Below are positions 9,812 through 44,171 of a stretch of 64,000 nucleotides of DNA, piece after piece. Both the position numbers and the translations under genes were made by a program. The number at the start of each line of letters is the position of its first letter. Position 1 is the first letter of the stretch. The notes below the pieces were generated by a model that saw only the letters and a program-made list of their open reading frames with translations, did not search any database and was not told the DNA's origin. This DNA comes from a virus (lineage: Duplodnaviria > Heunggongvirae > Uroviricota > Caudoviricetes), in the IMG/VR virus record IMGVR_UViG_3300033993_001993; one strand, given 5' to 3'.

Positions 9812-10264
9812 CTATGGTTTTGTATAAAATTGTATTTTGTTTTTGGCGTTTTCAATCAACCATTTATCAACGTAAGGTATTTTTTTTAAAAACTCCAATT
9901 CGTGTTGGTACGCAATGACTTCCTCCACATTTGGGTTCAAATTAAGGTTAGTTTTTAGGAGGTATAAATGTAATGATTCGTGAACGAGGATTGCCGAAAT
10001 GTTATAGATATTACCATTATTCATTTCTTTGGATGGTATTGTGATAACACTATCTGATTCTGTGGTTGAGAATCCCCCATTCCAAAAAGCAACTACCTTA
10101 CACGTTTCCATAATAAGGTAGTACTTTTCTTTATCGTATTTTTGTATTGTATCTAACGCTTGTTCGACTTTCCCTTTCCATCCATCACCAACATCCGTTA
10201 TTTTTATTTGCCCAAATATTGGTGTGAAAGTGAACATAACCAGTAAGAGTGTCCATATTCTCAC
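9812..10264 (-). CDS. Secreted protein with an HExxH motif (putative zinc metallopeptidase)
   Basis: N-terminal signal peptide MRIWTLLLVMFTFTPIFGQ; ILVHESLHLYL contains HExxH. Confidence 0.3.
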   Translation of the reverse strand: MRIWTLLLVMFTFTPIFGQIKITDVGDGWKGKVEQALDTIQKYDKEKYYLIMETCKVVAFWNGGFSTTESDSVITIPSKEMNNGNIYNISAILVHESLHLYLLKTNLNLNPNVEEVIAYQHELEFLKKIPYVDKWLIENAKNKIQFYTKP

Positions 10265-10716
10265 GGTAATTTAATTGCTGCGTCGTGTATTGCTTTCTTC
10301 AATGCTGAAGACAATGTCATCTTCTCAAAAGGTATCGATCCCTCTTGAACTTCAATAATAATTGCTCTAATCTCTGTGTCTGACTCACCCATCCCTTGGT
10401 AACAATTACCTTTATAATGAAGTTTAATTCCAACTTGAGTTATTGTATTTGTTTTTTCAACACCAACAACTCTTATGGTTGTCTTAGGTAAACCAAAATA
10501 GTAAATTTCAACATCTATTTTATCCCCTTGTTCTGATAAACAATATTTTTCAGATAACTCATCCTCAACAATTTGTTTAACCCCAAAACGAATATCTCTA
10601 TTACCAAGTTCTCTTAATTTCGCAGTCGAGTATACAGAATCAACAAATACACATTGTTGAGCTTTAGCGATGTTACCAAGTAGTAACATACCAAGTAGTA
10701 AGATTATATTTTTCAT
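10261..10716 (-). CDS. Secreted hypothetical protein
   Basis: Signal peptide MKNIILLLGMLLLGNIAKAQ. Confidence 0.35.
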   Translation of the reverse strand: MKNIILLLGMLLLGNIAKAQQCVFVDSVYSTAKLRELGNRDIRFGVKQIVEDELSEKYCLSEQGDKIDVEIYYFGLPKTTIRVVGVEKTNTITQVGIKLHYKGNCYQGMGESDTEIRAIIIEVQEGSIPFEKMTLSSALKKAIHDAAIKLP

Positions 10717-11306
10717 AATTTAATTTGGTATTTAGTAAAGTCGGTTGTTGATGGTTTCTCGTTTTTGAAATAGTATTTCTCGATTTTGTTTCCGTATTTA
10801 ATTGTCTTATAATATCCGTCAGGTACCGTAGCTCCTGTTGGTAACACAATTGATTTGGTTGAATAAACACAACGAATTTCAACGATCACACTTTTATTTG
10901 TCTTCGCCAATTCTCTTTCTCTAACCTCTAACAATCTCCAAGTAGTTCTATTTAAGTTCTCTTGTTGTAGTGAACAATTTAAGTATGTGAATGTTTTGAA
11001 TAGTAATTCTTTAGTACAATTGAAATCTGCCGCGGGCGCTAAGTGCCCTTTATCATATGGGTTGTTCGCATAATCCTTATCGTCAGATGTCAGTATCGAA
11101 TCACAAGTATAGAAATCCATACCTTTTCTTGGTGCGGATCCATTGGGACATTGTACCGTATAACGAATGAACTTTGGTTGTTGTAATTTTTCAGAATAAA
11201 CAATCTCAAACATATCTGTTTTAATGTAGACGGAATCTCTTAACGCTTTCTGACTGAAAACAAATAATGGTAATGTTAATAATAATGTTAGTAATAAATT
11301 TTTCAT
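10713..11306 (-). CDS. Secreted DNA/RNA non-specific endonuclease (Serratia NucA / EndoG His-Me finger family)
   Basis: Signal peptide MKNLLLTLLLTLPLFVFSQ; the DKGHLAPAADF active-site block (DRGH motif) and downstream QQENLNRTTWRLLE match the Endonuclease_NS family. Confidence 0.65.
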   Translation of the reverse strand: MKNLLLTLLLTLPLFVFSQKALRDSVYIKTDMFEIVYSEKLQQPKFIRYTVQCPNGSAPRKGMDFYTCDSILTSDDKDYANNPYDKGHLAPAADFNCTKELLFKTFTYLNCSLQQENLNRTTWRLLEVRERELAKTNKSVIVEIRCVYSTKSIVLPTGATVPDGYYKTIKYGNKIEKYYFKNEKPSTTDFTKYQIKL

Positions 11307-11307
11307 T

Positions 11308-12276
11308 TTAATATGATACGGTTGTTTTATACCCAGGAGCGATCAGATAATAGTTTTGTGATCCCCCACTTACAGGTGAGTTTATTGTTATTGATGACAC
11401 ACCAGGTATTGTTGATCTTAGATCTGATGTATTTGTCGTTAATGTTGTGTATTGTGCGGTTGTATATAATCTGGATGGACTCATATTAATCCAACCCCCT
11501 AATAAACCATATCGTCTAAGATTAATATAATTTTGATCGGCAACGTTTATTCTCCCATCATAGTTCACATCATATCTGTGGTAATGAATACTTTTAATTG
11601 GTGTAACACCTAATATTAATTTAGAAACTTCTACCATATCCGTAGTTTGTAGTGTAGTTACCGGTGTTGGAGCATCATATTGTATGTACCACTCAACCGC
11701 AGGACTTGTCGGTTGTGAAAAGTTATAGTACCCCGATGAGTTAGTGTAAACCGTTTGATGTAACACCCAAGGGGTAAAAGTCACAATATATTCAAACTCC
11801 AAAACATATGGTAATGATGTGTTAGGTAAATCATTCCATCTACCTCCTCCGACGAATTGAATGTAGTCCTCGTTACCGGCATTGTTTGGTTCTCCACTAT
11901 TCCAATACGACCAAGAATAAGGTTCACCCGTAACCCATCTCCACACACCTTCATTGACCTCATCGGTTAATCCGATCCACCCATTTGGCCAAAGGCTGAA
12001 TAGGAAATTGTTTTCGGCTAATGATGTTGAGGTAACTAAATGTCCCCCCATATTAATACAGGCTTGTCTTGCGTCCGTCCAAGTCATTGACCCTGTTGAT
12101 CTATAATATGAGTGCCCATTAAAGTTTTGTTGATTGGTAAATCCATTCATTACCGGTGTTGTTCTTTTATACAACTTAACAGGTACATTAACCGCGCCTG
12201 TTCCATCCGCATTATAAATGTATCCCGAATATGTAAAGGTTTGAGTAAACCCCATAAACGGAATCACAAATAACAT
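11308..12276 (-). CDS. Secreted C-type lectin domain protein (EPN/WND carbohydrate-binding motifs)
   Basis: WIGLTDEVNEGVWRWVTGEPYSWSYWNSGEPNNAGNEDYIQFVGGGRWNDLPN is a canonical CTLD long-loop signature. Start moved to the internal Met, which gives signal peptide MLFVIPFMGFTQ and removes the overlap with the next gene. Confidence 0.65.
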   Translation of the reverse strand: MLFVIPFMGFTQTFTYSGYIYNADGTGAVNVPVKLYKRTTPVMNGFTNQQNFNGHSYYRSTGSMTWTDARQACINMGGHLVTSTSLAENNFLFSLWPNGWIGLTDEVNEGVWRWVTGEPYSWSYWNSGEPNNAGNEDYIQFVGGGRWNDLPNTSLPYVLEFEYIVTFTPWVLHQTVYTNSSGYYNFSQPTSPAVEWYIQYDAPTPVTTLQTTDMVEVSKLILGVTPIKSIHYHRYDVNYDGRINVADQNYINLRRYGLLGGWINMSPSRLYTTAQYTTLTTNTSDLRSTIPGVSSITINSPVSGGSQNYYLIAPGYKTTVSY

Positions 12277-12284
12277 TATTGTTA

Positions 12285-13901
12285 TTATTGTCCTACTAAC
12301 ATTCTTGCTCCACACGTTACCGTATAATTTAAAGCACTTGTTTTTAAATCCCAAGCACCACCTGCGTTTATGTTGAATTTGAACTTCTTTGTAATTTTAA
12401 TATTTGTACCAATACTTGGTAACATCACATAAGGAGATTTCAATACAACATCATTATAGTAACTAACATACGGAGCGTAAACAAATAAATTCATTAATTT
12501 AACATCTATTCGTTTACCTATCCTCATATCGTAAGTCCCCCCAACAATTAATGCAGTCCCCAAAAATGATTCTCTATAAACATTTCCATAAGATACCGTC
12601 CCCATATAAAGAAGTTTAAGAGATTTAGGTTTCTTAAACGTAAACATTTGTCCTATTGCTACCGTACCGTATAATGACTTATTACCTTCAAACCCAATGG
12701 TTAGTGTTCCAGAACCAATCACAATTGATTTAGGTCTAATAAAAGCATAGAACGCAGTTATATTAGGACCTCTAAGGGCTGAAGTATAGTCACCTAAAAC
12801 CCCCGAACTTCTTTTACCATCCCATCTCATTGCAGTATACCCACCTGTTACTTTTAACCCTGTATTCACTTCAGAATCTCTAAAGTTAAACCCAACAAAG
12901 TCACCACTAGCGACTATTGTGGGTTTACCACCTTCTTTACTAGTTGGGGTTGCCTTTACCGTTGTGGTTGCACCACCTGTTATATTTGTTTGTCCACCTT
13001 CTTCTTTTCCTGTTTCAGGAGTTTTATTTTCCTCAGGTTTATTACTTCCCGAACCAGTCCCGTTATTCCCTGCCCCACCATTAGACCCATTCCCAGGCTC
13101 ACTACTACTATTTCCATTTCCACTTGTTGTTTGATTGTTTATTGGTGTTTCAGTTGTTTGACCACCACCATTTGGTTCTGTTGTTTGAGTTCCCCCATTT
13201 ATAGTCGGGTTAGTCGATTGATTTCCAGTTTCATTTGATCCACCTTGAGTTGTAGTTCCTCCTGCTTGTGTTGGATTTTGAGTTCCAACATTTTGACTAG
13301 TGGTTCCATTTCCTCCGTTTGTACCTCCTTCATTTGTTCCAGAAGTGGTTGTACCTCCTTGAGTAGAGTTACCTGTTCCATTCGTTTGATTTTGAGTATT
13401 ATTGGTTGTGGTATTATTATTTGTAGTATTATTTCCACTTCCATTTTGGGATTTATTCCCCTTCTTATCGTTACCCTTTGAATTTCCATTCCCTGTATTA
13501 TTAATAGTAGTTACAGACCCACCTATTAAATTTGTGGATCCCCCCGCTAAATCTGAGATTGTGGATAATGAATTAAGAATTCCGATTACGTTTAATGCTG
13601 TTCCTTGGGTTATGTTAATTGCCGTACCCAAACCTATTATTTCAGAGCAAGGACTATTTGTTCCATATTGTGAAAATATGTTATTAGTCCAAGATTCAAA
13701 TGTCCCGTTTGTAAAATCGTTTTGACTAAACGATCCCGTTTCACCGTAGTATGAAACTATTACGTTTCCATTTATCGGTATGACTATAGTTTTAAGATTT
13801 CCCGTACAGGGATCAGAGTAACTATAATTGTAAGATTGCGCATTCAGGTTAAAGAACCCAAACACGCAATAAAACAATAATATGAATACATTTAGTTTCA
13901 A
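12285..13901 (-). CDS. Secreted protein with a roughly 230-aa N/T/G/S-rich low-complexity region and a C-terminal beta-barrel-like domain
   Basis: Signal peptide; GNGNSKGNDKKGNKSQNGSGNNTTNNNTTTNNTQNQTNGTGNSTQGG... tract; the C-terminal 200 aa have alternating hydrophobic beta-strand-like character. Confidence 0.4.
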   Translation of the reverse strand: MKLNVFILLFYCVFGFFNLNAQSYNYSYSDPCTGNLKTIVIPINGNVIVSYYGETGSFSQNDFTNGTFESWTNNIFSQYGTNSPCSEIIGLGTAINITQGTALNVIGILNSLSTISDLAGGSTNLIGGSVTTINNTGNGNSKGNDKKGNKSQNGSGNNTTNNNTTTNNTQNQTNGTGNSTQGGTTTSGTNEGGTNGGNGTTSQNVGTQNPTQAGGTTTQGGSNETGNQSTNPTINGGTQTTEPNGGGQTTETPINNQTTSGNGNSSSEPGNGSNGGAGNNGTGSGSNKPEENKTPETGKEEGGQTNITGGATTTVKATPTSKEGGKPTIVASGDFVGFNFRDSEVNTGLKVTGGYTAMRWDGKRSSGVLGDYTSALRGPNITAFYAFIRPKSIVIGSGTLTIGFEGNKSLYGTVAIGQMFTFKKPKSLKLLYMGTVSYGNVYRESFLGTALIVGGTYDMRIGKRIDVKLMNLFVYAPYVSYYNDVVLKSPYVMLPSIGTNIKITKKFKFNINAGGAWDLKTSALNYTVTCGARMLVGQ

Positions 13902-14641
13902 TTTTTAAATACTCCTTTTGTGATAAGTCGACTCACCACTCTTGAAGATGCTGTCTCTAACGCCTTCTTTGTTGTTATACCAATAGTTGATTGGTTAAAT
14001 TTAACATCATCTGAGATGTCCCCCAATATTGTTGAGGTCTTTACCGTACTTGCCTCACCCAATCCTGATCCAACGATCACTTGACTTGTCTCAGCATCTA
14101 CGAATTTAATTTGTAATCCTAATCGTGTTGTTTGTGTTGTTGTCTGTTGTCCGTTAACTTTAACAACCTCATCCTCCGATACACTGAAGTCATATACCTC
14201 AATGTATACAAAGTATTTTGCTAAGATTACATTTCCTTTTACATCAATCTTATTAACTGAAATTCCTTTATCAGAAGCTTTGTCCTGAGCAATCATTCGT
14301 TGTTTGATGTCTTCTTTTTCTTCGGTAAAAACAAATCTACCCGTATACTCTAAATACTCAATCACAATGTTTGTTACACCTAAACCAACTCGTTTGTCTT
14401 TAAGTTCAGGATATAACTCATACAACTCCTCATTAATACCAATCTTTAATAATTGGATGGGAACTTGTATTGTATCAGTATAATCTGACACATCATTGAT
14501 AGATTGCTTCTTCTCAAATTCAGCTTGATATTGTTCAGTTTTCACAGAACCAATACCCCCACTGGTTTGTGGGGGCTGAGCTTGTGTTGTTTTACAACTG
14601 AATAAACTAAATATTGATAGTATGAATACTACTTTTTTCAT
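13898..14641 (-). CDS. Lipoprotein (signal peptide plus Cys lipobox)
   Basis: MKKVVFILSIFSLFSCKTT N-terminus. Confidence 0.4.
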   Translation of the reverse strand: MKKVVFILSIFSLFSCKTTQAQPPQTSGGIGSVKTEQYQAEFEKKQSINDVSDYTDTIQVPIQLLKIGINEELYELYPELKDKRVGLGVTNIVIEYLEYTGRFVFTEEKEDIKQRMIAQDKASDKGISVNKIDVKGNVILAKYFVYIEVYDFSVSEDEVVKVNGQQTTTQTTRLGLQIKFVDAETSQVIVGSGLGEASTVKTSTILGDISDDVKFNQSTIGITTKKALETASSRVVSRLITKGVFKN

Positions 14642-15309: not shown

Positions 15310-17220
15310 TTATTGTTTAATTATTCTTTCGAATGATGGAACTCCGTTCTCAACACTAAGTTTAACTATGTAAACCCCTGGTTCTAACTCACCTAAGTTT
15401 TTAGTGTAGTTATAAATCCCATCAGGTATTTGTGTGTCTAATATTGTAACTAACTTTCTACCAACTAAATCATATACCGATAGTGTTGCGTTTGTTGTCT
15501 CCTCAACTTTGAATGTGATTGTAACTTCGTCTTGATATGGATTAGGATATACTTCCATATTGTTATCGTTCAAGATGTTTCCACCTTCCATTTTTAATAC
15601 CTGAAGGATTCCGTTAGTTGGTGTTAAAGACAAATCACTTGAGTATGTAGTTCCAGCAAATTTTCTATTAGTGTACAAAGGACTTGCATCCCATAAGTTC
15701 TGTGGTTGTAACGCCAAGAATTGTATTATAACAACTTGATTACCATCTTTTAATGTGTTGTCATTATTTGTAGGATCAAACCCTCCCCATTCAATCTCGT
15801 TGTCGTTAGGGTTAACGTATGAAATCCATTTCATTGCCTCGGCTGATGATGTAATACCTTTAAATTGTAATAAGGTGTCATTGTATTTCAAACCAAATTG
15901 TAATGAACTTAATTCAATTCCATTTGTTATAACACTCACAGGAAGTTCAACTAAGTTACCAGCCTGAACTGAGATATTAGGAACATTTATTTCAATAGAT
16001 TGTGTTGGGAAATCGTATTCCACTTTAGTGTCAATAACATTGTATATTTGATTTTCTAAACCAGGTATTGGACCAACCACTACCTCAATAGGGGTTATAC
16101 GAGCCATATTATATCCTGTCCCATTTGCATCACCCGGTACCATCACATAATAAACAACTGAATCAGGTTGACCCGGTAGGATATCAAATGTAAAGTTAGT
16201 TACACCAGCAATTGATGAGGTGTAGTTAGTTGACGAACCATTAATTGTCGTATATTCCGTTGACGTAAAGAATTTAACATCTTTTGTATTGTTAGGCCAA
16301 GATGTAAATCTTCCTGAAACTCTACCAAACACACCCCAAACGTCTGAGATTGTTGTGTTGTTAGATCCGTTAACATCTGCAGTATAGTAATCAAACCCTG
16401 TCATTGTTCCGTTACCCAAAACCCATTGGTTTATTAATTGAGCATCTGTTGTTGATACAACATTACCAACACCCATAGTATCTCCTTTAACAGCTAAACG
16501 AACGTCCCAATATGTCGTATCCAATGGAACCGAAATATTAAAGTCTCCGTTATTATCCGTAACATAAACAGAATGTTGTGTCCAAGTTGATCCACCTGAT
16601 GGTTTTTTCTCTAACGCTAAAGTTAATGTTTTAGCTCCTGTACCAGTTACGTTTGTAAATGTTCCGTGGTAATCAAAGTTTACAGGTGTAAACACACCAC
16701 CATAGTTATGAACACTCAAAGTTGTATCCATACCATCTTGTTTTGCGGCGTATGGTGTAAACGTTTGAACTCCTGTCCAAGTTAAGTTACTTATTGTTGA
16801 TAAGTTATTAAATGTTGATGCTGGAGCGTGAGTAAATGTGATTAAGAATTTTTCACCGTTTGGTATAGTGTACGTAGAACTTGGACCAGTGTAACTTAAT
16901 GTCATTGTAATGTAACCATTCGCAGTGTTAGTCACATATTGAAGATCTAAGTTTGTTGTTGATCCTATCAAAGATACCGTTGCATTTGTAAATGCTACCT
17001 TATCATAAAATACTCTAAGCTGAACCCCAGCGAATTTTGTTAGGGTTGTATTTTGTAGTGTAATTTTGGCGGTTGTTGACCCTTGTGCTGAAGTCCCAAT
17101 CTGATATTGAGACGCAATGATACCCCACAAACCATTAGATGGTGCTGAAGGTACTTGTGATAACCCTATAAAAGGTAGTGATAATAACATTGTAAGGATT
17201 AACCCCTTAATTAATTTCAT
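15310..17220 (-). CDS. Large secreted/cell-surface protein with a T9SS C-terminal sorting domain
   Basis: N-terminal signal peptide; C-terminal about 80 aa (VYPNPYQDEVTITFKV...SVYDLVGRKLVTILD...GVYIVKLSVENG) match the Por secretion system CTD (TIGR04183-like). Confidence 0.6.
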   Translation of the reverse strand: MKLIKGLILTMLLSLPFIGLSQVPSAPSNGLWGIIASQYQIGTSAQGSTTAKITLQNTTLTKFAGVQLRVFYDKVAFTNATVSLIGSTTNLDLQYVTNTANGYITMTLSYTGPSSTYTIPNGEKFLITFTHAPASTFNNLSTISNLTWTGVQTFTPYAAKQDGMDTTLSVHNYGGVFTPVNFDYHGTFTNVTGTGAKTLTLALEKKPSGGSTWTQHSVYVTDNNGDFNISVPLDTTYWDVRLAVKGDTMGVGNVVSTTDAQLINQWVLGNGTMTGFDYYTADVNGSNNTTISDVWGVFGRVSGRFTSWPNNTKDVKFFTSTEYTTINGSSTNYTSSIAGVTNFTFDILPGQPDSVVYYVMVPGDANGTGYNMARITPIEVVVGPIPGLENQIYNVIDTKVEYDFPTQSIEINVPNISVQAGNLVELPVSVITNGIELSSLQFGLKYNDTLLQFKGITSSAEAMKWISYVNPNDNEIEWGGFDPTNNDNTLKDGNQVVIIQFLALQPQNLWDASPLYTNRKFAGTTYSSDLSLTPTNGILQVLKMEGGNILNDNNMEVYPNPYQDEVTITFKVEETTNATLSVYDLVGRKLVTILDTQIPDGIYNYTKNLGELEPGVYIVKLSVENGVPSFERIIKQ

Positions 17221-20211: not shown

Positions 20212-20493
20212 TTAATAAATTTTTATTGTTGGGTGTTCTATAATTTCAACGTGTTTCTTACATACTTGGTAATGTTTATCTAAAACTTCTTTGAGTAACT
20301 CTTCTTTTGTTTTACCATTATAATATGCGTAAAAACCACCATATCCCATATCAACCGAGTACCCAAGATACTTCCATCTGAACCATCCCTTTCTTTGGAT
20401 ATTATAAGATTCATCACTATTTTTTACAAATCTAATCTTAATTGTTTTCATATTTTTTAAAATTTTCTTTCCTTCATCATCCTTTTGAGACAT
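20212..20493 (-). CDS. Hypothetical protein
   Basis: 93-aa ORF. Confidence 0.3.
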   Translation of the reverse strand: MSQKDDEGKKILKNMKTIKIRFVKNSDESYNIQRKGWFRWKYLGYSVDMGYGGFYAYYNGKTKEELLKEVLDKHYQVCKKHVEIIEHPTIKIY

Positions 20494-37863: not shown

Positions 37864-38451
37864 TTAATCCCCATTAGTTAAAAAATTAATAATCTTTTCT
37901 TTAACGCCACATTGTTTAATACCTTCACTTGATTTTGGGGTTAAAACGAAATTACTAATTGCCCAAGCATCTTTCCAAGGTTCACCATTCTTACCCATAT
38001 TAAGATCGTCAACTGAAACCCAGTGTGTAACCTTAGGATGATCGTGTAGGTATTGTTGAATCTCAACGGTTCGTGTTTGTTCTAACTCCCATTGTGGTGA
38101 CCATATAAATAAATCACTATGAACAGTACAATTCTGAATGTTTGGAGTTAATGCGATTGGTCGTTTGATGATACCTTGACTTTCGTAGTAGTCACCAAGT
38201 TCTTCAAGTGTTGCGTGTAGTTTCCAATCTGAACTTACAACAATTTCACATCCTGTTTCTTCGATAATCTCATTCAATAACTTAATTGCCTTCTTATCGA
38301 AATCATCAAAACGATACTCAACAGGAGCTTCCTTTAAATTTGGTGATGAATCAGGATTCGCTGAACGATATTTCGCCCATTTTTTCTTTCGTCCACCCCA
38401 ATTATTAGAGAGACAAATTACACCATCGTTATCTAAGAAGAGTACTTTCAT
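37864..38451 (-). CDS. HAD-superfamily phosphatase-like protein
   Basis: N-terminal FLDNDGVI (DxDG motif I of HAD hydrolases). Confidence 0.4.
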   Translation of the reverse strand: MKVLFLDNDGVICLSNNWGGRKKKWAKYRSANPDSSPNLKEAPVEYRFDDFDKKAIKLLNEIIEETGCEIVVSSDWKLHATLEELGDYYESQGIIKRPIALTPNIQNCTVHSDLFIWSPQWELEQTRTVEIQQYLHDHPKVTHWVSVDDLNMGKNGEPWKDAWAISNFVLTPKSSEGIKQCGVKEKIINFLTNGD

Positions 38452-38644: not shown

Positions 38645-39640
38645 TTAGTTTCTTATAACTTTTTCAGTTGATCCGTCACTATATCGGATGATATGTAATT
38701 CACCTGATTCAGGTTTACATTCTCTACCTAACATATCTGTGATTTTAACGATTGTCTTCCCATATTGAGTTAACTCTTCAATTTCTGCAAATCCTATACT
38801 CTCAGTTTGATTGATAACAATAGTTTTATAATCCATTGATTTAGTATAACAATACACAACTAATTGGAAGTTATAACATCCTGTTGAGTCGATCATTGGG
38901 TAGTTCACCATATATGTTTGGTATGTACCTGTTGTATCAATAACATACCACACACATAAAATACTGTCTAAACCACTATTAATAAGACCATTTATTGTCA
39001 TATATGCTGTGTCGATTGTGTTAAAATTTATATTACAATCTTCTATGGTTGTGGTGAAATTACCAATTGGACTATTACAAGTACCTGTTGAATTTAACAC
39101 TAAAGTATCTCCGAAATTGGTTGATTGTGTTACGATTGAATCACATAATGTTGTATTACATCCGTTAGCATCCATTACATAACAACAATACCCCCCTACA
39201 GATAAATTATTGATCGTCTGAAGCATATTACCATTACTCCACTGATATGTGTATGGTGCCGTTCCGTTAATAACATTTGCTGTCATTGATCCATCATTAA
39301 TTGTAGAATCAATTGTTGTGATATATCCACCGAAGTTAAAACACGGATTGAATGTACCTGATGTTATGTTGAACGTAAGTGTTGTTGGGGTATTATTAAC
39401 AACGAATGAAACTGTGTAAGTTCCAGGACAAAGACTATCAACATAGTATCCTCCTGATTGGATCACCGCGCCAAATCCATTCCAATTAATCACCGATAAG
39501 TTAACACTCGTATCTAATACTGCAGTACCATCACAGATGTTAGGACCACTAGTAGGTGAGGTATAAACCATTGTTTGGGACATTACCCCAAAAGAAATAA
39601 CACTAATAAGTGTCAGTAATAATAATTTTAATTTTTTCAT
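38645..39640 (-). CDS. Secreted SprB-repeat protein with a T9SS-type C-terminal domain
   Basis: Signal peptide; INDGSMTANVINGTAPYTYQWSNGN matches the SprB repeat consensus (DGS...GG..PYTY.W); C-terminal KITDMLGRE...IIRYSDGSTEKV is CTD-like. Confidence 0.5.
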   Translation of the reverse strand: MKKLKLLLLTLISVISFGVMSQTMVYTSPTSGPNICDGTAVLDTSVNLSVINWNGFGAVIQSGGYYVDSLCPGTYTVSFVVNNTPTTLTFNITSGTFNPCFNFGGYITTIDSTINDGSMTANVINGTAPYTYQWSNGNMLQTINNLSVGGYCCYVMDANGCNTTLCDSIVTQSTNFGDTLVLNSTGTCNSPIGNFTTTIEDCNINFNTIDTAYMTINGLINSGLDSILCVWYVIDTTGTYQTYMVNYPMIDSTGCYNFQLVVYCYTKSMDYKTIVINQTESIGFAEIEELTQYGKTIVKITDMLGRECKPESGELHIIRYSDGSTEKVIRN

Positions 39641-39688
39641 AAATTTGTTTTTTAGTTAACTATAAACAAATATAAATAATATATCAAT

Positions 39689-39711
39689 AAAAAACCCTCC
39701 TTTTGGGAGGG
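39689..39711 (-). terminator. Rho-independent terminator (CCCTCC-tttt-GGAGGG + T6)
   Basis: Immediately downstream of the TonB-dependent receptor stop. Confidence 0.6.
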
Positions 39712-39718
39712 TAACTAA

Positions 39719-42280
39719 TTAAAACTTATATTTAACCGATAGTGAAACCGTTTGACCAAAAGTAATCTCTTGCCACCTATTATCTTCTGTGTCATATCTA
39801 TGATTACCATTTAGGTCTTGGAAATATATAAGTTTTTGTGCTAATATATCTTTTAAGTTTAATTTTAATTCAACCTTTTTAAATGTTTTTGACAATTGGA
39901 AATCGATCACATTTCTTCCGTTTTCCCAAACGCTAGGTTCCTGTTGATTACCAACAATATAGATTCTAGGTCCGATAACATTATAGGATAATGTAACATT
40001 AAAATCTTCTTTTTTGTTCGTGTAAAATAACCCTGAATTAATGATGTATGGTGATTGTCCTTGTAGTGGTCTGTTACCACCAGCACCTATAACCTCATCC
40101 ATATTTACCACTGACTTAATAATTGAAATATTACTATAGATTGTAAGTTGGTTCCATAATTTATGGTTTTCAACTTTAGATAAAAACCCTAATTTAAATC
40201 TGAATTCTAACTCACCACCAAAACTTTGTGATCTTTCAATGTTTGAGAAGTATAACTCAGGTGCTCCTGACGTTCCGGTCCTATTTATAGTTTCAATAGG
40301 GTTATTAAAGTTTTTGTAAAACCCTGACAAACTTATAATCTGACCACTACCAGGGTAAATCTCATATCTAATATCACAATTAGTTATCTTAGTTCTTTTT
40401 AAATATGGATTACCTGATGTGATATTATCCAATACGAAGTTATAGAAGTTAAATGGCGCTAATTCTCTAAACTCAGGTCTAGATACCGTTTGACTAATAC
40501 TTCCTCTTAACTTCATTTTTTTATTGAAGTTATAAATTACATTAACAGAAGGTAATAAATCAATTACCGTTGTGTCAATGTTTCTATTTAAGTTACTCCC
40601 AAACTCAATGTAGTTAAAGTTTTGATTGTAAGATTCTAATCTAACTCCACCCGCAAATCTCCACTTGTTCAATTTGTAATCAACCATAGTGTAGAAAGAA
40701 TTTAAGAATGAATTTGCATCATAACTATCATCAACTTTGGTTGCCTCATCTAATTTAAAACCACCCTGACCATTACTTAAAAGACCCATATTCTCAGTGG
40801 AGAATATTTGATCCATAGGTAATAAAAGTAAGTCACTATTAAAGGTACTACCGTTTGGTTTATATTGTGAAAACCCAAAATTTCTTGATTGAAAGTCTTT
40901 CATTCTAAATTGATTCCACCCACCGATCTTGACTGAATTAACATCTTTAAATGGAATTGTTAGATCATATCTTGCACTTATAATTTTTTCATCTGATTCA
41001 GACCAAAACATATTACCAGCAGCAGTTGGTATTGTACCGTTCTGTTGAATAACTGCAACATATTGTTCTGTTGGGTCATCCTCATTTAAAGAGTATTTTC
41101 TATACACTACTCTCCTTAGGTTCGGAATGTCTCTTTTAACATTACTATAACCAACACTCCAATTAAATTTATTTTCTTTTATCGTGTGAATCCCAAGTAA
41201 TTGATTAGTTAAAAAGTTATTTTGAGTATACCAAAAATTCGTAGATTTCTCCCATTGTCTTGGATCACTATCTAACTCTCTAACACCCTTTCTAACATTA
41301 ACCTTATCTTCAGAATTTACAGAATAAATATTCTTAAACTTGATGGTGTTGTTTTCATTAATCTTATAAACCAAATTTAACATACCACTATTTAAAACAC
41401 TCTGAGTAAATACAGAATCATTTAGTTCCATTTTCTTAACCACACCCGTTGCTTGTTCCTCAAACTCTCTTCTAACAATATTATTATAGTTGAAGTTGTT
41501 TTGGTAGTTATACGTTAAAATGAAACTTAACGTTTGTTTCTTTTTAAATTTAATGTTTCTACTTAAGGTATATTGAATAGATGGGTTAGGTAACGCGAGC
41601 CTATCTTTAGTTGACCAAGTAAAGTCCATTAGTTTTGCAACCTCAGACCTTTCTTGTTTTGATAAGTTTTGGAAATCAATAGTTCCATTAATATTTGGTA
41701 ACCCTCTAGATTCAACACTATATGTTTTAAAATCCCTAAATGTTGCAATTGTATTATGTGATCCACCAATCTGTATTGTATGAGTATTCTCATTTTTAGG
41801 TTCGGAAGTGTTAATATCAATTACGCCTCCAGCAAACTCACCAGGTAAATCAGGACTAGCAGTCTTCATCACCATTAGATTGTCAATCATATTTGATGGG
41901 AATATATCAAACGAAAAAGATCGCTTATCGGATTCCGAACTTGGTAAAGGTAGCCCGTTCAATAATGCGAAGTTGTATCTATCATTAAGACCCCTCACAA
42001 CCACGAACTTATTATCCACAACACTTATCCCACTAACACGTTTAAAAACATCAGAGACCTTAGAGTCTGGTGTTCTCTTAAAGGTCTCTGCGTTAATTCC
42101 GTCTACAGATGTAATACTATTTCTTTGTAGTTTTACAAGTTCTGTTGTTGATTCTTTATTAATTTTAAAGGTAACCGTAACCCCCTCAACATTTCTAATT
42201 GTATCTTTTTTAAATGTCTCAGATGGTTGAGCCAATAATTGTATTGGTAGTACCAATAATAACGTCAATAAAAATTTCAT
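39719..42280 (-). CDS. TonB-dependent outer-membrane receptor (plug + 22-strand barrel)
   Basis: Signal peptide; plug-domain blocks (VVVRGLNDRYNFALLNGLPLPSSE, EFAGGVIDINT); 853 aa; C-terminal ...LSVKYKF ending in an aromatic residue. Confidence 0.75.
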   Translation of the reverse strand: MKFLLTLLLVLPIQLLAQPSETFKKDTIRNVEGVTVTFKINKESTTELVKLQRNSITSVDGINAETFKRTPDSKVSDVFKRVSGISVVDNKFVVVRGLNDRYNFALLNGLPLPSSESDKRSFSFDIFPSNMIDNLMVMKTASPDLPGEFAGGVIDINTSEPKNENTHTIQIGGSHNTIATFRDFKTYSVESRGLPNINGTIDFQNLSKQERSEVAKLMDFTWSTKDRLALPNPSIQYTLSRNIKFKKKQTLSFILTYNYQNNFNYNNIVRREFEEQATGVVKKMELNDSVFTQSVLNSGMLNLVYKINENNTIKFKNIYSVNSEDKVNVRKGVRELDSDPRQWEKSTNFWYTQNNFLTNQLLGIHTIKENKFNWSVGYSNVKRDIPNLRRVVYRKYSLNEDDPTEQYVAVIQQNGTIPTAAGNMFWSESDEKIISARYDLTIPFKDVNSVKIGGWNQFRMKDFQSRNFGFSQYKPNGSTFNSDLLLLPMDQIFSTENMGLLSNGQGGFKLDEATKVDDSYDANSFLNSFYTMVDYKLNKWRFAGGVRLESYNQNFNYIEFGSNLNRNIDTTVIDLLPSVNVIYNFNKKMKLRGSISQTVSRPEFRELAPFNFYNFVLDNITSGNPYLKRTKITNCDIRYEIYPGSGQIISLSGFYKNFNNPIETINRTGTSGAPELYFSNIERSQSFGGELEFRFKLGFLSKVENHKLWNQLTIYSNISIIKSVVNMDEVIGAGGNRPLQGQSPYIINSGLFYTNKKEDFNVTLSYNVIGPRIYIVGNQQEPSVWENGRNVIDFQLSKTFKKVELKLNLKDILAQKLIYFQDLNGNHRYDTEDNRWQEITFGQTVSLSVKYKF

Positions 42281-42285
42281 TCCTA

Positions 42286-43848
42286 TTATTTTTTAACTAT
42301 AACTTTTTCTGTATGACCTTCAGCGTTGATAATATAAATACCATTTTCCAAATCTGATAAGTCCGTATTGTTTTGTTTTACAACTTTACCCAATGAATTG
42401 TAGATTACAAAATTTAAAGATTTTTTATCAGAATCAATACTGATTAAACCTTCTGTTGGGTTAGGAAATACTTTAAACGATGTTTTGATTGTTTCAGTAA
42501 TACTATTAGTTAAATCACCAAATTTAGAATTTGTAAAGTCAGCACCTGTTGCAACAACTGATGTGCTATCTAATCTACAATCAGGTACAACACCACTTGG
42601 TACAAATATGTTTACCCAATTGATTTGATTGATTGTTGTTAACGTATCGTTATTGTGACTCGAAAAGTATGTTGTTAAAATTCCTGGTGTTGTAACTAAA
42701 CAATTTGTTGGTATTTCACAAAGAACATTACTTTCGAAAGCCAATGTGTCCCCTAACAAATTATCCTCAACTGATGTACCTTCTAATGATAATCCCTTTT
42801 CCCATCCAACAACAAGAGTATTGAACACTGATGTTGCGGAGTTTCTTCTAATTCTAAAAGCTTTCTCAAACTTCTCACCTGTTGGTAGAGTAACCGTACC
42901 ATTACCTTTCGCACCTACAATAGTGAAATTAGAGAATATCGGAGCGGTTTGTGGTAAAGACGAACTACCTTGTGCGTCATTATCTGATTCGAAACAATTT
43001 GAGTCACCTGCGGCGTCTGATAAATTTTCATTTCTAATTGATAACCCAAACTGAACGTTACCTCTGTATCCAAAATCAGTGTCGAAATCATCGTCTGTTG
43101 TTGAATAAGCTATTAAATGTTTACAATTAACCGTTCCTCCAAACCATTCAAAAGCATCGTCACCTGAATAACTTACCTGAATAAAATCAACTTGAGTTCC
43201 CGAACCAACTGATCCAAAAGTAATACCATTTATTTCTTTATTTGGTGCTAATGGTATTCCCGCGAATTCAATTCTAATATATTTTAATATTCCTGAATTA
43301 TCATTATCGTTATTACCACCAAATTCGGTATCAGATGTTGGAGCAATACCCTCAATGTTTGCAACACCACCAGGTTGGTTATTAACACCGTTACCTAAAA
43401 GTACAACTCCACCCCAATCACCTTCAGATCTATTTCCAATAGAATTGTTTGATGTAAAAACAATTGGTAATTGTTGTGTTCCTTCAGCGATTAATTTAGA
43501 ACCTCTTGTTATAATCAAAGTCCCTTGTGTTGCATTATCACCTCTGATGATTGTTCCTGGTTGAATCGTTAGTGTTGATCCGTTTTTAACATAAATTTTG
43601 TTTTCTAACAAGATAACACCTGACCAAATTGTATTTGTTGTGATGTCCGAACTAACGGTTGTTTGTGTCGATGGGTAATTTGTATTTTCGGGATTAAAAT
43701 TAGACCACCCATAAGTCCAATCTGTTTGTGGTGTATTGTCCGTCACAGGAAAAGCTCCCTTATAATTGGTAACGGTCCAAAACTGACTTTGTGCGCTTGT
43801 TAAGAAAACAAACATTAACATTACGATACTTGCGTAAATCTTTTTCAT
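42286..43848 (-). CDS. Secreted protein with a T9SS C-terminal sorting domain
   Basis: Signal peptide MKKIYASIVMLMFVFLTSAQS; the C-terminus FKVFPNPTEGLISIDS...NGIYIINAEGHTEKVIVKK matches the T9SS CTD. Confidence 0.6.
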   Translation of the reverse strand: MKKIYASIVMLMFVFLTSAQSQFWTVTNYKGAFPVTDNTPQTDWTYGWSNFNPENTNYPSTQTTVSSDITTNTIWSGVILLENKIYVKNGSTLTIQPGTIIRGDNATQGTLIITRGSKLIAEGTQQLPIVFTSNNSIGNRSEGDWGGVVLLGNGVNNQPGGVANIEGIAPTSDTEFGGNNDNDNSGILKYIRIEFAGIPLAPNKEINGITFGSVGSGTQVDFIQVSYSGDDAFEWFGGTVNCKHLIAYSTTDDDFDTDFGYRGNVQFGLSIRNENLSDAAGDSNCFESDNDAQGSSSLPQTAPIFSNFTIVGAKGNGTVTLPTGEKFEKAFRIRRNSATSVFNTLVVGWEKGLSLEGTSVEDNLLGDTLAFESNVLCEIPTNCLVTTPGILTTYFSSHNNDTLTTINQINWVNIFVPSGVVPDCRLDSTSVVATGADFTNSKFGDLTNSITETIKTSFKVFPNPTEGLISIDSDKKSLNFVIYNSLGKVVKQNNTDLSDLENGIYIINAEGHTEKVIVKK

Positions 43849-43959
43849 ACTCTATTTTTATAATTTTATTACACCAATAGATAGTCCAACAAATAGGTTA
43901 AATCAACTTGGTCGCTATGATTTAGCGATAACCTAATACTCTTAACGTTTAGGTAGCAC

Positions 43960-43986
43960 AAAAAAACCCCCACATTTCTGTGAGGG
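43960..43986 (-). terminator. Strong rho-independent terminator (CCCUCACA-gaaa-UGUGGGGG + U7) about 180 nt downstream of gene 44172..44606
   Basis: 8-bp stem including one G-U pair, a GNRA-like tetraloop and a T7 run on the minus strand. Confidence 0.55.
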
Positions 43987-44171
43987 TTTCATATGATTTG
44001 TCTCAAAGAGTCAAAAATAGGTCAAAAAGAGAGTTTTAAGTTTTAATCAAATGACTTTTGAGTATTTGAAATTTCGTTTTAATGTCAGTTCGTTACCTTT
44101 ATCAATTATCTATCCAATCGGATCCATAATGTAGAACAACCATCACTTTTTAACCCTATCCACAAACCATA

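Follow-up and report, generated by a model that had tools for sequence, protein, structure and literature searches.

Introduction

In Flavobacterium johnsoniae, the genes Fjoh_0543-0546 encode PhoR, PhoB, a TonB-dependent transporter (TBDT; pf07715, pf13715, pf14905) and FII, a protein of the pectin-lyase fold, and log2 fold changes of 8.0 and 9.9 upon Pi depletion have been reported within this cluster (Lidbury et al. 2021, PMC8115612). The same investigation described FI and FII as structurally similar to polygalacturonase. For the pairs BT4055/BT4056 and CCNA_00170/ElpS, the pectin-lyase-fold surface protein has been proposed to be a substrate-binding lid of the transporter, and the BT4055/BT4056 lid pair, which is homologous to ElpS, is conserved in 621 genera (Price & Arkin 2023, bioRxiv 10.1101/2023.03.17.533168). 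Furthermore, ElpS is induced by Pi starvation (Le Blastier 2010, PMC2996285).

In cyanophages, the phosphate AMGs pstS and phoA were acquired from hosts and respond to P stress (PMC10976474). [quoted passage not shown] 2021, bioRxiv 10.1101/2021.07.26.453748), and glycoside hydrolases and a PA14 protein encoded in hypervariable islands have been described as T9SS cargo of 'Cryophage' (Bellas et al. 2020, PMC7468147).

In the present study, a window of 64,000 nucleotides (the whole stretch of viral DNA that was analysed, from IMG/VR record IMGVR_UViG_3300033993_001993) was found to carry a gene for a beta-helix protein with a T9SS C-terminal sorting domain (CTD) next to a TBDT gene. The structure, origin, pairing and boundaries of these two genes establish them as a self-contained, host-derived bicistronic cassette. 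On balance, we favour the view that it is an auxiliary cassette for the uptake of a nutrient, probably phosphorus, that relies on the Sec, BAM, TonB and T9SS machineries of the host.

Results

Organization of the cassette

The cassette occupies positions 39694-43990 on the minus strand and consists, in the order of transcription, of a terminator, a leader, the 520-aa gene, a gap of 5 nt, the 853-aa TBDT gene and a second terminator, as follows:

43963..43990, minus strand, intrinsic-terminator-like hairpin (GAAACCCTCACAGAAATGTGGGGGTTTT followed by a T-run), left boundary of the cassette
43849..43962, minus strand, conserved 5' leader of about 115 nt, presumed promoter or regulatory region
42286..43848, minus strand, secreted right-handed beta-helix protein of 520 aa with a type-A T9SS CTD
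42289..42483, minus strand, type-A T9SS C-terminal sorting domain of the 520-aa protein (residues ~456-520)
39719..42280, minus strand, TBDT of 853 aa (Pfam/NCBIfam matches)
39694..39712, minus strand, intrinsic-terminator-like hairpin (ACCCTCCCAAAAGGAGGGT followed by a T-run), right boundary of the cassette

The TBDT start codon lies 5 nt past the stop codon of the beta-helix gene, and the right-boundary hairpin begins 7 nt past the TBDT stop. Similarity among the window and the related loci L004 and L019 begins at the left hairpin, upstream of which the sequences are unrelated. A different hairpin was found at this position in L013, and at the right boundary other inverted repeats, each with a T-run behind it, were read by eye in L013 and L025. 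The leader is kept in the window, L004, L013 (96%), L019 (83%) and L179 (70%, at a different genome position), its motif occurs only once in the window, and it showed no similarity to host DNA. Moreover, the cassette as a whole is located elsewhere in the genome in L179 and has another neighbour in L004, and it is absent from the cultured Flavobacterium myovirus immuto. The initial annotation had treated three adjacent genes, the third encoding a 331-aa protein, as one unit. Its open reading frames proved exact in position, but the grouping did not hold, because the 331-aa gene was present only in the 100%-identical strain and missing from the 96% variants, in which the TBDT is directly followed by HAD_SAK.

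The TonB-dependent transporter

The profile search confirmed the 853-aa protein as a TBDT, with plug and barrel matches above the Pfam cut-offs. The plug matched PF07715 at 44.5 bits (cut-off 23.9; residues 53-152), and the barrel (about residues 394-853, the last residue being Phe) matched TonB_dep_Rec_b-barrel PF00593 at 92 bits and OMP_b-brl_3 PF14905 at 92.9 bits, each against a cut-off of 27. The protein has a Sec signal peptide (MKFLLTLLLVLPIQLLA followed by QPS, with cleavage between LLA and QPS) and a candidate TonB box, EGVTVTF, which aligns with the (I/V)TVxA/K of host homologs. The best-scoring subfamily was TIGR01782 TonB-Xanth-Caul, to which the TBDT aligned end to end (residues 34-853 on positions 4-868 of 868) with 217.5 bits against a cut-off of 310, which leaves it outside that family. 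A SusC/RagA label found no support: the NCBIfam matches at E<=0.01 included no SusC/RagA family, and the TBDT is flanked by the beta-helix CTD protein and by an Ig-repeat protein, with no SusD adjacent. The N-terminal CarboxypepD_reg domain (PF13715/PF13620) is missing in the window TBDT and in the phage variants of 853-864 aa, and is kept in host homologs and in the phage copies L025, L191-L198 and LR745206. In addition, 10 residues, including an otherwise nearly invariant LGFG, are missing in the subclade of the 853-aa TBDT. These two losses could have altered the function of the phage TBDT.

The beta-helix protein

The 520-aa protein carries a signal peptide at residues 1-19 (MKKIYASIVMLMFVFLTSA followed by QSQ, with cleavage between TSA and QSQ), and its AF2 model consists of a right-handed beta-helix and a CTD beta-sandwich. 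The CTD scored 40.9 bits with Por_Secre_tail PF18962 (cut-off 27) and 34.6 bits with TIGR04183 (cut-off 23). A search of the PDB with the family profile matched four chains, over the C-terminal part only, one of which is 8glj, a Por secretion system C-terminal sorting domain-containing protein. The protein therefore has the pectin-lyase (right-handed beta-helix) fold and the extracytoplasmic character of the ElpS/FII/BT4056 family, with an SPI-type signal (TSA before Q) and a T9SS CTD in place of the N-terminal lipoprotein anchor, and it is a candidate surface partner ('lid', ElpS/FII/BT4056-like) of the TBDT.

A beta-helix protein encoded by a phage might instead be a virion tailspike or depolymerase whose adjacency to the TBDT is coincidental. 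This is highly improbable, since its cleavable Sec signal peptide and its T9SS CTD would send the protein out of the cytoplasm, where virions are assembled. Furthermore, the protein has no N-terminal virion-attachment domain, shares 52-74% identity with chromosomal host proteins that are invariably paired with the TBDT, and is encoded in a non-structural region.

Origin from a conserved host locus

Almost all of the closest cellular homologs of the TBDT (up to 65% identity) belong to freshwater Crocinitomicaceae/Flavobacteriales MAGs, which narrows the Bacteroidota host proposed by the initial annotation. The host locus has the order TBDT, beta-helix-Ig/PKD-CTD protein, PhoB-like response regulator and PhoR-like kinase. 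Clustering of the host ORFs recovered these at 75, 63, 53 and 42 loci, respectively, and one such locus sits among RbfA, MsrA and FtsX genes. At about 65 of 80 loci the TBDT is directly followed by a homolog of the 520-aa protein, and the cassette genes are 56-70% identical to the host copies over their full length, including the plug, TonB-box region and barrel. Comparison with host homologs thus traced both cassette genes to a single conserved Crocinitomicaceae chromosomal locus, relative to which the order of the pair is inverted in phages. PF18962 is present both in the chromosomal homologs and in the genes beside them, so that a T9SS is implied for the lineage of the host. The host regulator is of the OmpR type. 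The best NCBIfam matches of this regulator and of the kinase were PhoB (205 bits) and PnpS/PhoR (250/236 bits), all below the curated cut-offs, and the kinase has 356 aa, far fewer than the 583 positions of the NCBIfam Bacteroidota PhoR profile. The host upstream regions contain 66 TTAA pairs phased at 11 nt, versus 1.1 in shuffles. This phased pair is absent from the leader in the window, and some viral copies of the cassette have a CTTAAC repeat pair, 11 nt apart, resembling the putative regulator-binding array of the host.

On the basis of fold, domain content, synteny and the literature, the host locus appears to correspond to Fjoh_0545/Fjoh_0546, BT4055/BT4056 and CCNA_00170/ElpS. In all of these, a non-SusC TBDT with Plug, OMP_b-brl_3 and, in some, CarbopepD_reg domains stands beside a pectin-lyase-fold surface protein, and the Crocinitomicaceae pair adjoins a PhoB/PhoR-type two-component system as in F. 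johnsoniae. However, the pair in the window is phage-borne, inverted in order and without the regulator genes, its TBDT has no N-terminal CarboxypepD_reg, unlike Fjoh_0545, and its beta-helix protein, like the Crocinitomicaceae host copies, has a type-A T9SS CTD instead of the lipid anchor of FII, BT4056 and ElpS. Because the TBDT and the 520-aa protein are two halves of one conserved host system, nutrient uptake is the best supported of the roles that the initial annotation had suggested.

The nutrient could also be carbon and energy rather than phosphorus, with the 520-aa protein acting as a secreted polysaccharide lyase or hydrolase and the TBDT importing the oligosaccharides. Members of TIGR01782, the best subfamily match, are often tied to carbohydrate use. 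The invariant Asp/Glu/Arg clusters of the 520-aa family (DDDFDTD, GDSNxFESDND and RxRRN) are compatible with a Ca-dependent lyase site; carbohydrate uptake was proposed for the megaphage 'SusC' by Michniewski et al., and the polygalacturonase likeness of FI/FII noted by Lidbury et al. (PMC8115612) points the same way. We nevertheless consider this reading unlikely. The identity of the 520-aa protein to characterised enzymes is only 8-15%, no SusC/RagA model matches the TBDT, and no CAZyme, SusD or sugar-catabolism genes adjoin the pair in hosts or phages, the conserved host neighbours being the PhoB/PhoR-like two-component system. Moreover, almost every member of the host family has the pair, in a highly conserved form, which contrasts with the variability typical of PULs.

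Phage context of the window

About 17 genes of the window have homologs in immuto (29-66% identity), including a syntenic block. The identical TBDT with identical junctions was found in 42 index blocks of assemblies, on contigs of up to 91-120 kb, and the same junctions recur in JGI, ENA, NCBI and Logan assemblies from many samples. The TBDT locus is flanked on both sides by phage-type genes for more than 40 kb, among them genes for ThyA, Acb3, ClpP, a GH19 endolysin, RNA ligase/PNK, DUF3310, methyltransferases and DUF932, and these flanks contain no housekeeping genes. Just past the window end lies a gene whose product weakly matches a virion protein of PA5oct; it is conserved in 62 IMG/VR contigs (the longest of 291,867 bp), and lengths of 216-292 kb are reached by relatives in IMG/VR. 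Classical P genes such as phoH or pstS were not seen in the window.

The abundance of phage hallmarks asserted by the initial annotation calls for a qualification: among the approximately 115 kb examined with PHROGs and Pfam (the window and about 50 kb of flanks), neither capsid nor portal, terminase or tail genes turned up. This result would fit host chromosomal DNA adjoining a prophage, a chimera created during assembly, or an origin from a plasmid or conjugative element, as would the PcfJ-like and DUF932 domains, which are also known on conjugative elements, and the fact that viral records can hold bacterial fragments (e.g., MT838075.1 and MT837092.1). Such an origin is nonetheless barely credible. 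A host flank is rejected because dozens of contigs, assembled independently and up to 120 kb long, have the identical junctions and carry phage-type content to either side, and the block in common with a cultured myovirus, the size of the IMG/VR relatives, and the systematic differences of the phage copies from the host copies in order, length and lack of regulator and kinase genes also argue against it. The phage identity of the window is therefore well supported by evidence other than virion hallmark genes, and we read the window as part of a large, probably jumbo, lytic-type phage of freshwater Crocinitomicaceae (Flavobacteriales).

Recurrence and selection

A relative was found at 26 IMG/VR loci, all of them compatible with the phage arrangement, and the host regulator and kinase had no match at any of these. 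At every locus that includes the upstream side (19 of the 26), the TBDT gene comes after a beta-helix homolog, which is full-length with the CTD region at 15. In the megaphage LR745206 (634,780 bp), a beta-helix lipoprotein (lipobox VTSC) with 34% identity to the 520-aa protein (E 2e-49) is encoded upstream of a TBDT, and it shares its lipoprotein nature with FII, BT4056 and ElpS. At about 65 of the 80 host loci, at the 19 IMG/VR loci that include the upstream side and in LR745206, the beta-helix gene adjoins the non-SusC TBDT on the same strand. Among phage variants, the TBDT gene had dN/dS values of 0.05-0.10 and the beta-helix gene values of 0.06-0.17, at dS of 0.27-1.1; the cassette is under purifying selection, with dN/dS of about 0.06. 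The phage TBDTs form one clade nested among host sequences (NJ bootstrap 65/100, rising to 80/100 without L025), and the beta-helix tree resolved no single phage clade (21/100 for all five).

Other exported proteins

Further exported proteins are encoded in the window:

38645..39640, minus strand, Cys-rich secreted protein of 331 aa with a signal peptide and three Ig-like beta-sandwich domains (AF2 model)
15310..17220, minus strand, secreted protein of 636 aa with Cohesin and a type-A T9SS CTD (Pfam/NCBIfam)
15313-15552, minus strand, CTD of the 636-aa protein (residues 557-636)
9812..14641, minus strand, run of genes for Sec-signal proteins of 150, 151, 197 (Endonuclease_NS), 348 (C-type lectin), 538 and 247 aa, syntenic with immuto 9977-14806

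At least 12 proteins in the window, two of them with a CTD, have Sec signals according to a heuristic hydrophobicity scan combined with the Q-rule. The signal peptides of the 331-, 520-, 636- and 853-aa proteins all end in A or S directly before Q, the cleavage of the Bacteroidetes Q-rule (PMC5837995). A custom CTD HMM found type-A CTDs only in the 520-aa and 636-aa proteins, for both of which the earlier CTD assignment was borne out by PF18962 and TIGR04183 scores above the curated cut-offs.

The 636-aa protein (signal peptide ending LPFIGLS before QVP) scored 42.3 bits with PF18962, 50.3 bits with TIGR04183 and 30.1 bits with Cohesin. It lies within a block of exported proteins common to the window and immuto, whose gp015 also has Cohesin and Por_Secre_tail (34.6 bits). 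It is an exported protein of the phage family, separate from the cassette. The 331-aa protein had been described as an SprB-repeat protein. A single repeat at residues 115-138 was indeed detected (PF13573, 31.8 bits against a cut-off of 28), but it is marginal, and several homologs have no SprB match at all. Its fold of tandem Ig-like domains resembles GhpA and SGBP-type proteins; no NCBIfam model and no type-A or type-B CTD model, including TIGR04131, matched it, and a short C-terminal unit that resembles the last CTD strands likewise gave no HMM match. An SprB adhesin normally has many PF13573 copies, a very large size and a type-B CTD, and this small protein with one marginal repeat was rejected as such. 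Its family is phage-borne, with members elsewhere in other large phage-like contigs, and the protein, a separate, strain-variable Ig-repeat protein, lies outside the cassette.

The number of exported proteins, including two CTD proteins and an Ig-repeat protein, would also suit a remodelling of the cell surface, in which the phage pair displaces or dilutes a TBDT/lid complex of the host that serves this phage or its competitors as a receptor, or the T9SS cargo (520, 636 and 331 aa) blocks adsorption. A TBDT without NTE and with a deletion might be expected of a non-transporting decoy, the 331-aa gene is strain-variable, and roles in competition between strains or in superinfection have been suggested for phage T9SS cargo (Bellas et al., PMC7468147). 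However, strong purifying selection and 56-70% full-length host identity fit a working transporter better than an arms-race decoy, and an extra receptor copy would attract phages, not repel them, so that we regard surface remodelling as improbable. No sign that this TBDT serves as a phage receptor was found in this analysis, nor did anything in it support the superinfection exclusion and receptor masking put forward in the initial annotation.

Discussion

Returning to the favoured nutrient-uptake cassette, we infer expression, export and complex formation of its proteins, as well as their substrate, along the following lines. During infection, the leader of the cassette would drive the synthesis of the 520-aa and 853-aa proteins, which Sec would export. 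The host BAM would insert the TBDT barrel, which the host TonB-ExbBD would energise, and the host T9SS would carry the beta-helix protein to the cell surface by means of its CTD. It is plausible that an outer-membrane barrel and T9SS cargo are made and inserted within a lytic cycle. The pair would then add uptake capacity, most likely for a phosphorus-containing compound, and the extra uptake may supply the replication of the very large phage genome in lake water in which P is limiting. That phage proteins with a CTD would use the host T9SS, as the initial annotation had proposed, is a natural reading of their sequences, with a precedent in 'Cryophage' (PMC7468147) and a CTD in gp015 of immuto.

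Like cyanophage pstS and phoA, the cassette represents host-derived nutrient genes kept in a lytic phage, presumably easing the P limitation of phage DNA synthesis. It differs from them in that its products are an outer-membrane transporter and a surface protein instead of a phosphatase or periplasmic binding protein, in that its phages infect heterotrophic Bacteroidota, and in that three host machineries (BAM, TonB and T9SS) would be needed; its P specificity is putative. As with Mar_Mega_1 and LR745206, a TBDR of a huge phage is read here as an uptake AMG, and the LR745206 gene of Michniewski et al. is probably the one found here beside the beta-helix lipoprotein; their study listed only the gene, without the partner protein, source host locus, Pho link or cassette structure. 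As in 'Cryophage', type-A T9SS sorting domains are encoded by phage genes, some of them strain-variable, and the host T9SS is presumably hijacked. In the present case, however, one cargo protein is encoded together with a transporter whose conserved partner it is, and is under purifying selection, and the CTD is also found in a cultured phage (immuto gp015).

Being host-derived, missing in relatives, bracketed as a transcription unit and under purifying selection, the cassette has the properties of an auxiliary or moron cassette. It resembles phage morons such as lambda lom and bor as a terminator-bracketed unit for envelope proteins with its own upstream region, missing from the related cultured phage and varied in position in related genomes, but differs from them as a two-gene functional pair in huge phages that are apparently lytic, not temperate. 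A beta-helix gene beside a TBDT was also found on the human-gut fragment MT838075.1, with 49% identity to the 520-aa protein; this record and MT837092.1 have the host gene order, and virome records can thus contain bacterial fragments.

Results

Exported proteins of the window

The genes examined here were found exactly where the initial annotation had placed them. The exported proteins, and the hairpins that bracket two of their genes, are listed below; all lie on the minus strand.

39719-42280, minus: TonB-dependent transporter (TBDT), 853 aa, with Plug, TonB-dependent-receptor barrel and OMP_b-brl_3 domains
42286-43848, minus: beta-helix protein, 520 aa (PF18962 40.9 bits, TIGR04183 34.6 bits)
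15310-17220, minus: cohesin-CTD protein, 636 aa (PF18962 42.3 bits, TIGR04183 50.3 bits)
38645-39640, minus: 331-aa protein with a single SprB repeat
43990-43963, minus: terminator-like hairpin, 5' of the 520-aa gene
39712-39694, minus: terminator-like hairpin, 7 nt 3' of the TBDT stop
9812-17220, minus: block of Sec-signal proteins (Endonuclease_NS, C-type lectin, 538 aa, 247 aa and the 636-aa cohesin-CTD protein), syntenic with NC_055915.1 9977-14806 of the cultured Flavobacterium myovirus vB_FspM_immuto_2-6A (immuto)

The identification of the 853-aa protein as a TBDT was confirmed by matches to Plug (44.5 bits), the TonB-dependent-receptor barrel (92 bits) and OMP_b-brl_3 (92.9 bits), and its alignment with TIGR01782 ran from end to end with a score of 217 bits, which is under the 310-bit subfamily cut-off. 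The T9SS C-terminal sorting domains (CTDs) proposed for the 520-aa and 636-aa proteins were of type A and exceeded the curated cut-offs of both PF18962 and TIGR04183, and a custom HMM made from the CTDs detected no additional type-A CTD in the window. The SprB-repeat label of the 331-aa protein held for one repeat, which scored barely above threshold (31.8 against 28) and was the only match of this protein; neither the custom HMM nor the curated models detected a CTD in it, and the resemblance was confined to a short motif. Sec signal peptides were predicted on all four proteins, with cleavage before Gln (LLA/QPS, TSA/QSQ, VMS/QTM and GLS/QVP), and cleavage ahead of glutamine is the Q-rule signature of Bacteroidetes (PMC5837995). 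It is unlikely that the beta-helix protein, which carries both a Sec signal and a CTD, is a virion depolymerase. Sequence searches of the PDB with the beta-helix and TBDT profiles yielded only matches to the CTD and to the N-terminal CarboxypepD_reg domain (NTE).

Ten residues (DGSxxDFLGFG in relatives) are missing from the 853-aa TBDT subclade at protein residues ~188-190 (window ~41.7 kb; columns 269-278 of the TBDT alignment). The missing stretch includes LGFG, which is nearly invariant across all other phage and host homologs, and purifying selection persists in the gene with this deletion. Antisense ORFs at 41808-42230(+) and 42746-43054(+), seemingly conserved in related loci, were rejected as an artefact of their overlap with the conserved TBDT and beta-helix genes, and the same artefact appeared in the ORF clustering of host loci (clusters 4-6).

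Phage identity of the window

The exact TBDT sequence was found in 42 index blocks (JGI, ENA, NCBI and Logan assemblies) on contigs of up to 91.5 kb, and the 636-aa protein was found on a 120.5-kb contig. Gene order around the pair was identical in almost all assemblies carrying the exact TBDT, and a host flank or a misassembly is thus an unlikely source of these genes. The window and ~10 kb on each side encoded thymidylate synthase, Acb3, ClpP, a GH19/PG-binding endolysin, a second lysozyme, RNA ligase, a polynucleotide-kinase-like protein, HAD_SAK_2, DUF3310, GIY-YIG, DNA methyltransferases, DUF932, thioredoxin/glutaredoxin and a GlnII-like glutamine synthetase; almost every gene was small and on a single strand, and no housekeeping operon was present over this span. 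No capsid, portal, terminase or tail gene was found in the window or the ~50 kb of walked flanks, which were reached via assemblies, IMG/VR and one metagenome scan and searched with PHROGs and Pfam on ~40 proteins. The same DNA contained no tRNAs, and an 'integrase' match of a 404-aa protein (21 bits) was too weak for a temperate call. GenBank phages gave no match at the DNA level (megablast, 20 kb) or in tblastn with the 615-aa and 420-aa proteins.

Immuto (160 kb) was reached through the 636-aa protein. Homologs of ~17 window genes (29-66% identity) lay within its first 72 kb, and in the shared block of exported proteins, to which the 636-aa protein belongs, the nuclease, C-type lectin and 247-aa protein were 58%, 55% and 66% identical, respectively. 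Moreover, immuto gp015 (YP_010114427.1) combined a cohesin domain with a T9SS CTD (34.6 bits, above threshold), which provides a cultivable system in which the use of T9SS by a phage is directly testable. A 458-aa protein encoded ~5-6 kb past the window end (760-2136 of the viral contig L008) occurred in 62 IMG/VR contigs at 45-86% identity, the largest being 291,867, 272,576, 229,188, 219,553 and 216,575 bp. This protein, a useful marker for this group of jumbo phages, weakly matched EST35_0205 of jumbo phage PA5oct (29% over 170 aa, E 1e-5), a virion protein confirmed by mass spectrometry. The immuto homologs, the 458-aa gene on large IMG/VR contigs and the presence of the transporter pair itself on IMG/VR contigs settle that the window is phage DNA; the genes therefore lie, as the initial annotation had presumed, inside a phage rather than in host chromosome beside a prophage.

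A two-gene cassette bounded by hairpins

The stop of the 520-aa gene and the start of the TBDT gene were separated by 5 nt, and the leader between hairpin and start codon (~115-130 nt) was conserved among the window, the otherwise identical strain L004, the variants of 96% and 83% identity and the more distant locus L179, with unrelated sequence beyond the upstream hairpin. In L004 (1-1357, compared with window 43849-44606) the left neighbor was a DUF932 gene instead of the 144-aa DIP1984/DUF6847-like gene of the window, and the breakpoint was the terminator hairpin. In L179, whose TBDT was 70% identical, the pair was placed ~50 kb away on the shared genome map, with a lysozyme/221-aa/UvrC-like group on one side and GT2/Metallophos/YceI on the other. 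In the viral locus L025 its neighbors were DUF2589, CoaE, 2H-SAK and CCA-adding-enzyme-like genes, with the N-terminal domain retained in the TBDT. Downstream of the pair, L013 (a 96% variant) and L025 each carried an inverted repeat distinct from that of the window, with a T-run behind it, as judged by eye. The L013 hairpins at ~8.3 kb and 12.58 kb were alike (CCCCATCTTTAACAGGTGGGG and CCCCATTTTCAACAGATGGGG), and they could belong to one terminator family present in repeated copies or be short direct repeats on either side of the cassette. No copy of the cassette was found in immuto.

The initial annotation had also listed the 331-aa protein with the TBDT and CTD proteins as host-type cell-envelope machinery. 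Its gene occurred in no strain other than the one identical to the window; in the 96% variants the TBDT was immediately followed by HAD_SAK_2. Its homologs (49-98% identity, ~330 aa) were carried by other large phage-like contigs full of small ORFs, one of them again adjoining HAD_SAK_2. The modeled structure comprised three Ig-like sandwiches, with the Aureispira grappling-hook protein GhpA and a Bacteroides surface glycan-binding protein as the best structural matches. The 331-aa protein is a separate, strain-variable exported protein of the phage family, outside the cassette.

A TBDT relative was present in 26 IMG/VR loci. Sequence upstream of it was retained in 19, and all 19 had a beta-helix homolog there, which was full-length (~520 aa including the CTD region) in 15; the CTD exceeded the Pfam cut-off in each of the four viral copies scanned. 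Among phage copies, dN/dS of the TBDT was 0.05-0.06 at dS 0.28-0.37 and 0.08-0.10 at dS 0.87-1.12, and that of the beta-helix gene was 0.06-0.07 at dS 0.27-0.68 and 0.12-0.17 against the 83% variant. Both genes are under purifying selection in the phages. Superinfection exclusion or receptor remodeling fits such strong selection and full-length conservation less well and is distinctly improbable.

Directly 3' of the cassette in L179 (10664-12096) were a GT2 glycosyltransferase and an LpxH-like metallophosphoesterase, which resemble the PlcP/Agt lipid-remodeling pair used under P starvation; this is a lead only. The 230-aa Metallophos protein of the window was not homologous to the LpxH-like gene.

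Host origin of the gene pair

The TBDT relatives fell into two classes, one of 853-864 aa (67-100% identity) without the N-terminal CarboxypepD_reg domain and one of 929-949 aa (64-68% identity) with it. A long-form TBDT, P0117, was found in true chromosome, adjoining genes for RbfA, MsrA, FtsX and an ABC transporter, and the gene on its 3' side coded for an 856-aa protein that combined Beta_helix_4, Ig/PKD and Por_Secre_tail domains. When one genome per species was scanned, 80 host loci were obtained, nearly all from freshwater Crocinitomicaceae/Flavobacteriales MAGs (Fluviicola, Lishizhenia and many Lake Mendota bins), with a best TBDT match of 65% identity. In ~65 of the 80, the gene directly after the TBDT encoded a protein homologous to residues 1-443 of the 520-aa protein (52-74% identity). 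ORF clustering recovered the TBDT in 75 loci, a beta-helix CTD protein (median 842 aa) in 63, an OmpR-type regulator in 53 and a histidine kinase in 42, and these constitute a conserved four-gene host locus. The best NCBIfam matches were Bacteroidota PhoB for the regulator (205 bits) and PnpS (250 bits) and PhoR (236 bits) for the kinase, all below curated cut-offs. Every host locus had the TBDT first, opposite to the phage order of beta-helix then TBDT, and no match to the regulator or kinase was found in the 26 IMG/VR loci.

In a neighbor-joining tree, the phage TBDTs formed a clade nested among Crocinitomicaceae (bootstrap 65/100, or 80/100 without L025), and the beta-helix tree supported only an inner four-member phage clade (70/100). 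GC and GC3 of the cassette equaled those of both phage and hosts and are therefore uninformative on the age of the transfer. The picture is one of an old capture from Crocinitomicaceae, then rearrangement, followed by spread and maintenance in a group of large phages.

At about 160 nt upstream of the TBDT genes of the host loci (L027-L106) lay TTAA-containing direct repeats phased at 11 nt and followed by a TTTG box. Distance-11 TTAA pairs numbered 66 in 37 distinct host regions, against 1.1 in shuffles, with further spacing peaks at 21/22 and 32/33, and the array looks like a putative binding array for an OmpR/PhoB-type regulator. Three viral copies more distant than the window's (L194, L196 and L198) had CTTAAC-N5-CTTAAC and then TTTG upstream of the beta-helix gene, much like the hosts, and some viral copies may thus still carry putative PhoB-like sites of host type. 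The window's own leader (43849-43962, minus) contained no phased TTAA pair, and its interpretation either as a repeated phage promoter or as host-derived sequence was rejected.

Discussion

Relation to lid-type uptake systems

In Flavobacterium johnsoniae, the phoBR cluster encodes PhoR (Fjoh_0543), PhoB (Fjoh_0544), a TBDT (Fjoh_0545; pf07715, pf13715 and pf14905) and FII (Fjoh_0546), a pectin-lyase-fold surface lipoprotein, and Pi depletion induces the last two 2^8-fold and 2^9.9-fold, respectively (Lidbury et al., PMC8115612). FI, FII and FIII are related to Caulobacter ElpS (PMC8115612), a surface lipoprotein induced by Pi starvation and associated with phosphatase activity (PMC2996285). 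BT4055/BT4056 are homologs of the Fjoh_0545/Fjoh_0546 pair; BT4056 shares 40% identity with Fjoh_0546 and is a distant relative of ElpS, genes of this type are neighbors in 621 genera, and the beta-helix protein has been proposed to act as the transporter's lid (Price and Arkin, bioRxiv 10.1101/2023.03.17.533168). The domain set found here is the same as that of Fjoh_0545. Fold, domain content, pairing and the PhoBR-type neighborhood, rather than direct alignment, provide a strong lead that the 520-aa/TBDT pair belongs to the ElpS/FII/BT4056 family.

In the 634,780-bp megaphage LR745206, a TBDT with CarbopepD_reg and Plug domains is immediately preceded by the gene for a 431-aa beta-helix lipoprotein (lipobox VTSC), which shares 34% identity with the window's 520-aa protein (E 2e-49). 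This copy shows an independent occurrence, and its lipoprotein version is an internal bridge from the CTD protein of the window to the lipoproteins of the proposed lid type. Two short virome records from human faeces labeled 'Bacteriophage sp.' had the host order, TBDT then beta-helix, with identities of 29%/49% (MT838075.1) and 26%/36% (MT837092.1), and they may derive from bacterial instead of phage DNA.

Proposed function and significance

The cassette is very probably functional, as a host-derived TBDT with its partner. The phage would make its own copy of the host transporter and surface partner, unaccompanied by the host regulator genes, and installation would proceed via host Sec, BAM, TonB-ExbBD and T9SS. 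An auxiliary nutrient-uptake cassette is the most likely role. Phosphorus is the best guess for the nutrient, with close to an even chance, because the host genes have a PhoBR-type neighborhood and because of the evidence from F. johnsoniae and Caulobacter; a carbohydrate role, with the beta-helix protein acting as a lyase, is rather unlikely. It is tentatively proposed that huge phages of Bacteroidota repeatedly carry a complete, phage-adapted outer membrane nutrient-uptake complex (TBDT plus lid) from a host Pho-type regulon, exported by three host machineries including T9SS, which would be an outer membrane-level phosphorus AMG outside cyanophages.

The cassette resembles known auxiliary/moron genes and Pho-type AMGs. 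Phosphorus-acquisition auxiliary genes are a textbook feature of cyanophages and, to our knowledge, accounts of them in phages of heterotrophic freshwater bacteria are very scarce. For T9SS cargo encoded by phages there is one earlier report, on Cryophage (PMC7468147), and the AMGs listed for megaphages include a 'TonB-dependent receptor SusC' (Michniewski et al. 2021, bioRxiv 10.1101/2021.07.26.453748). The literature searched held no report of a transporter and T9SS cargo as two parts of one ElpS/FII-type host system, of their capture as a mobile cassette, of their phage-specific rearrangement or of selection on them in many huge-phage lineages, and no description of a whole outer membrane uptake complex of this kind in a phage. 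The cassette links three threads, namely phage T9SS cargo, megaphage 'SusC' AMGs and the ElpS/FII lid-TBDT system (>600 genera), and it suggests that phages can rely on host T9SS, BAM and TonB together. If the proposal is true, infected Crocinitomicaceae would change their uptake from lake water, which bears on P cycling during blooms, and the cassette would offer a natural genetic handle on the substrate of the widespread ElpS/BT4056-TBDT system.

Other genes of the window and its relatives

An RNA-repair set was scattered around the cassette on the minus strand (37864-38451, 46643-47764 and 50936-52032), consisting of HAD_SAK_2, an RNA ligase (PHA02142 OB domain plus RNA_ligase) and an AAA_33 kinase-like gene with Metallophos. 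L025 (11719-14235) adds 2H-SAK and a PolyA_pol/CCA-adding-like gene to this set, and near its TBDT pair LR745206 encodes an RNA ligase of the same architecture. The gene at 56311-57456(-) encodes a homolog of GlnII-type glutamine synthetase (NF041605, 336 bits, below the cut-off of 500) and may be a nitrogen-assimilation auxiliary gene. The 230-aa protein at 20457-21149(-) had a Pfam match to Acb3 (PF25187), which we take to be an anti-CBASS family. The thymidylate synthase at 21282-22529(-) is 415 aa long and the matching PHROG profile spans only ~280 positions, which points to a large insertion; the immuto enzyme (423 aa, 62% identity) shares this long form.
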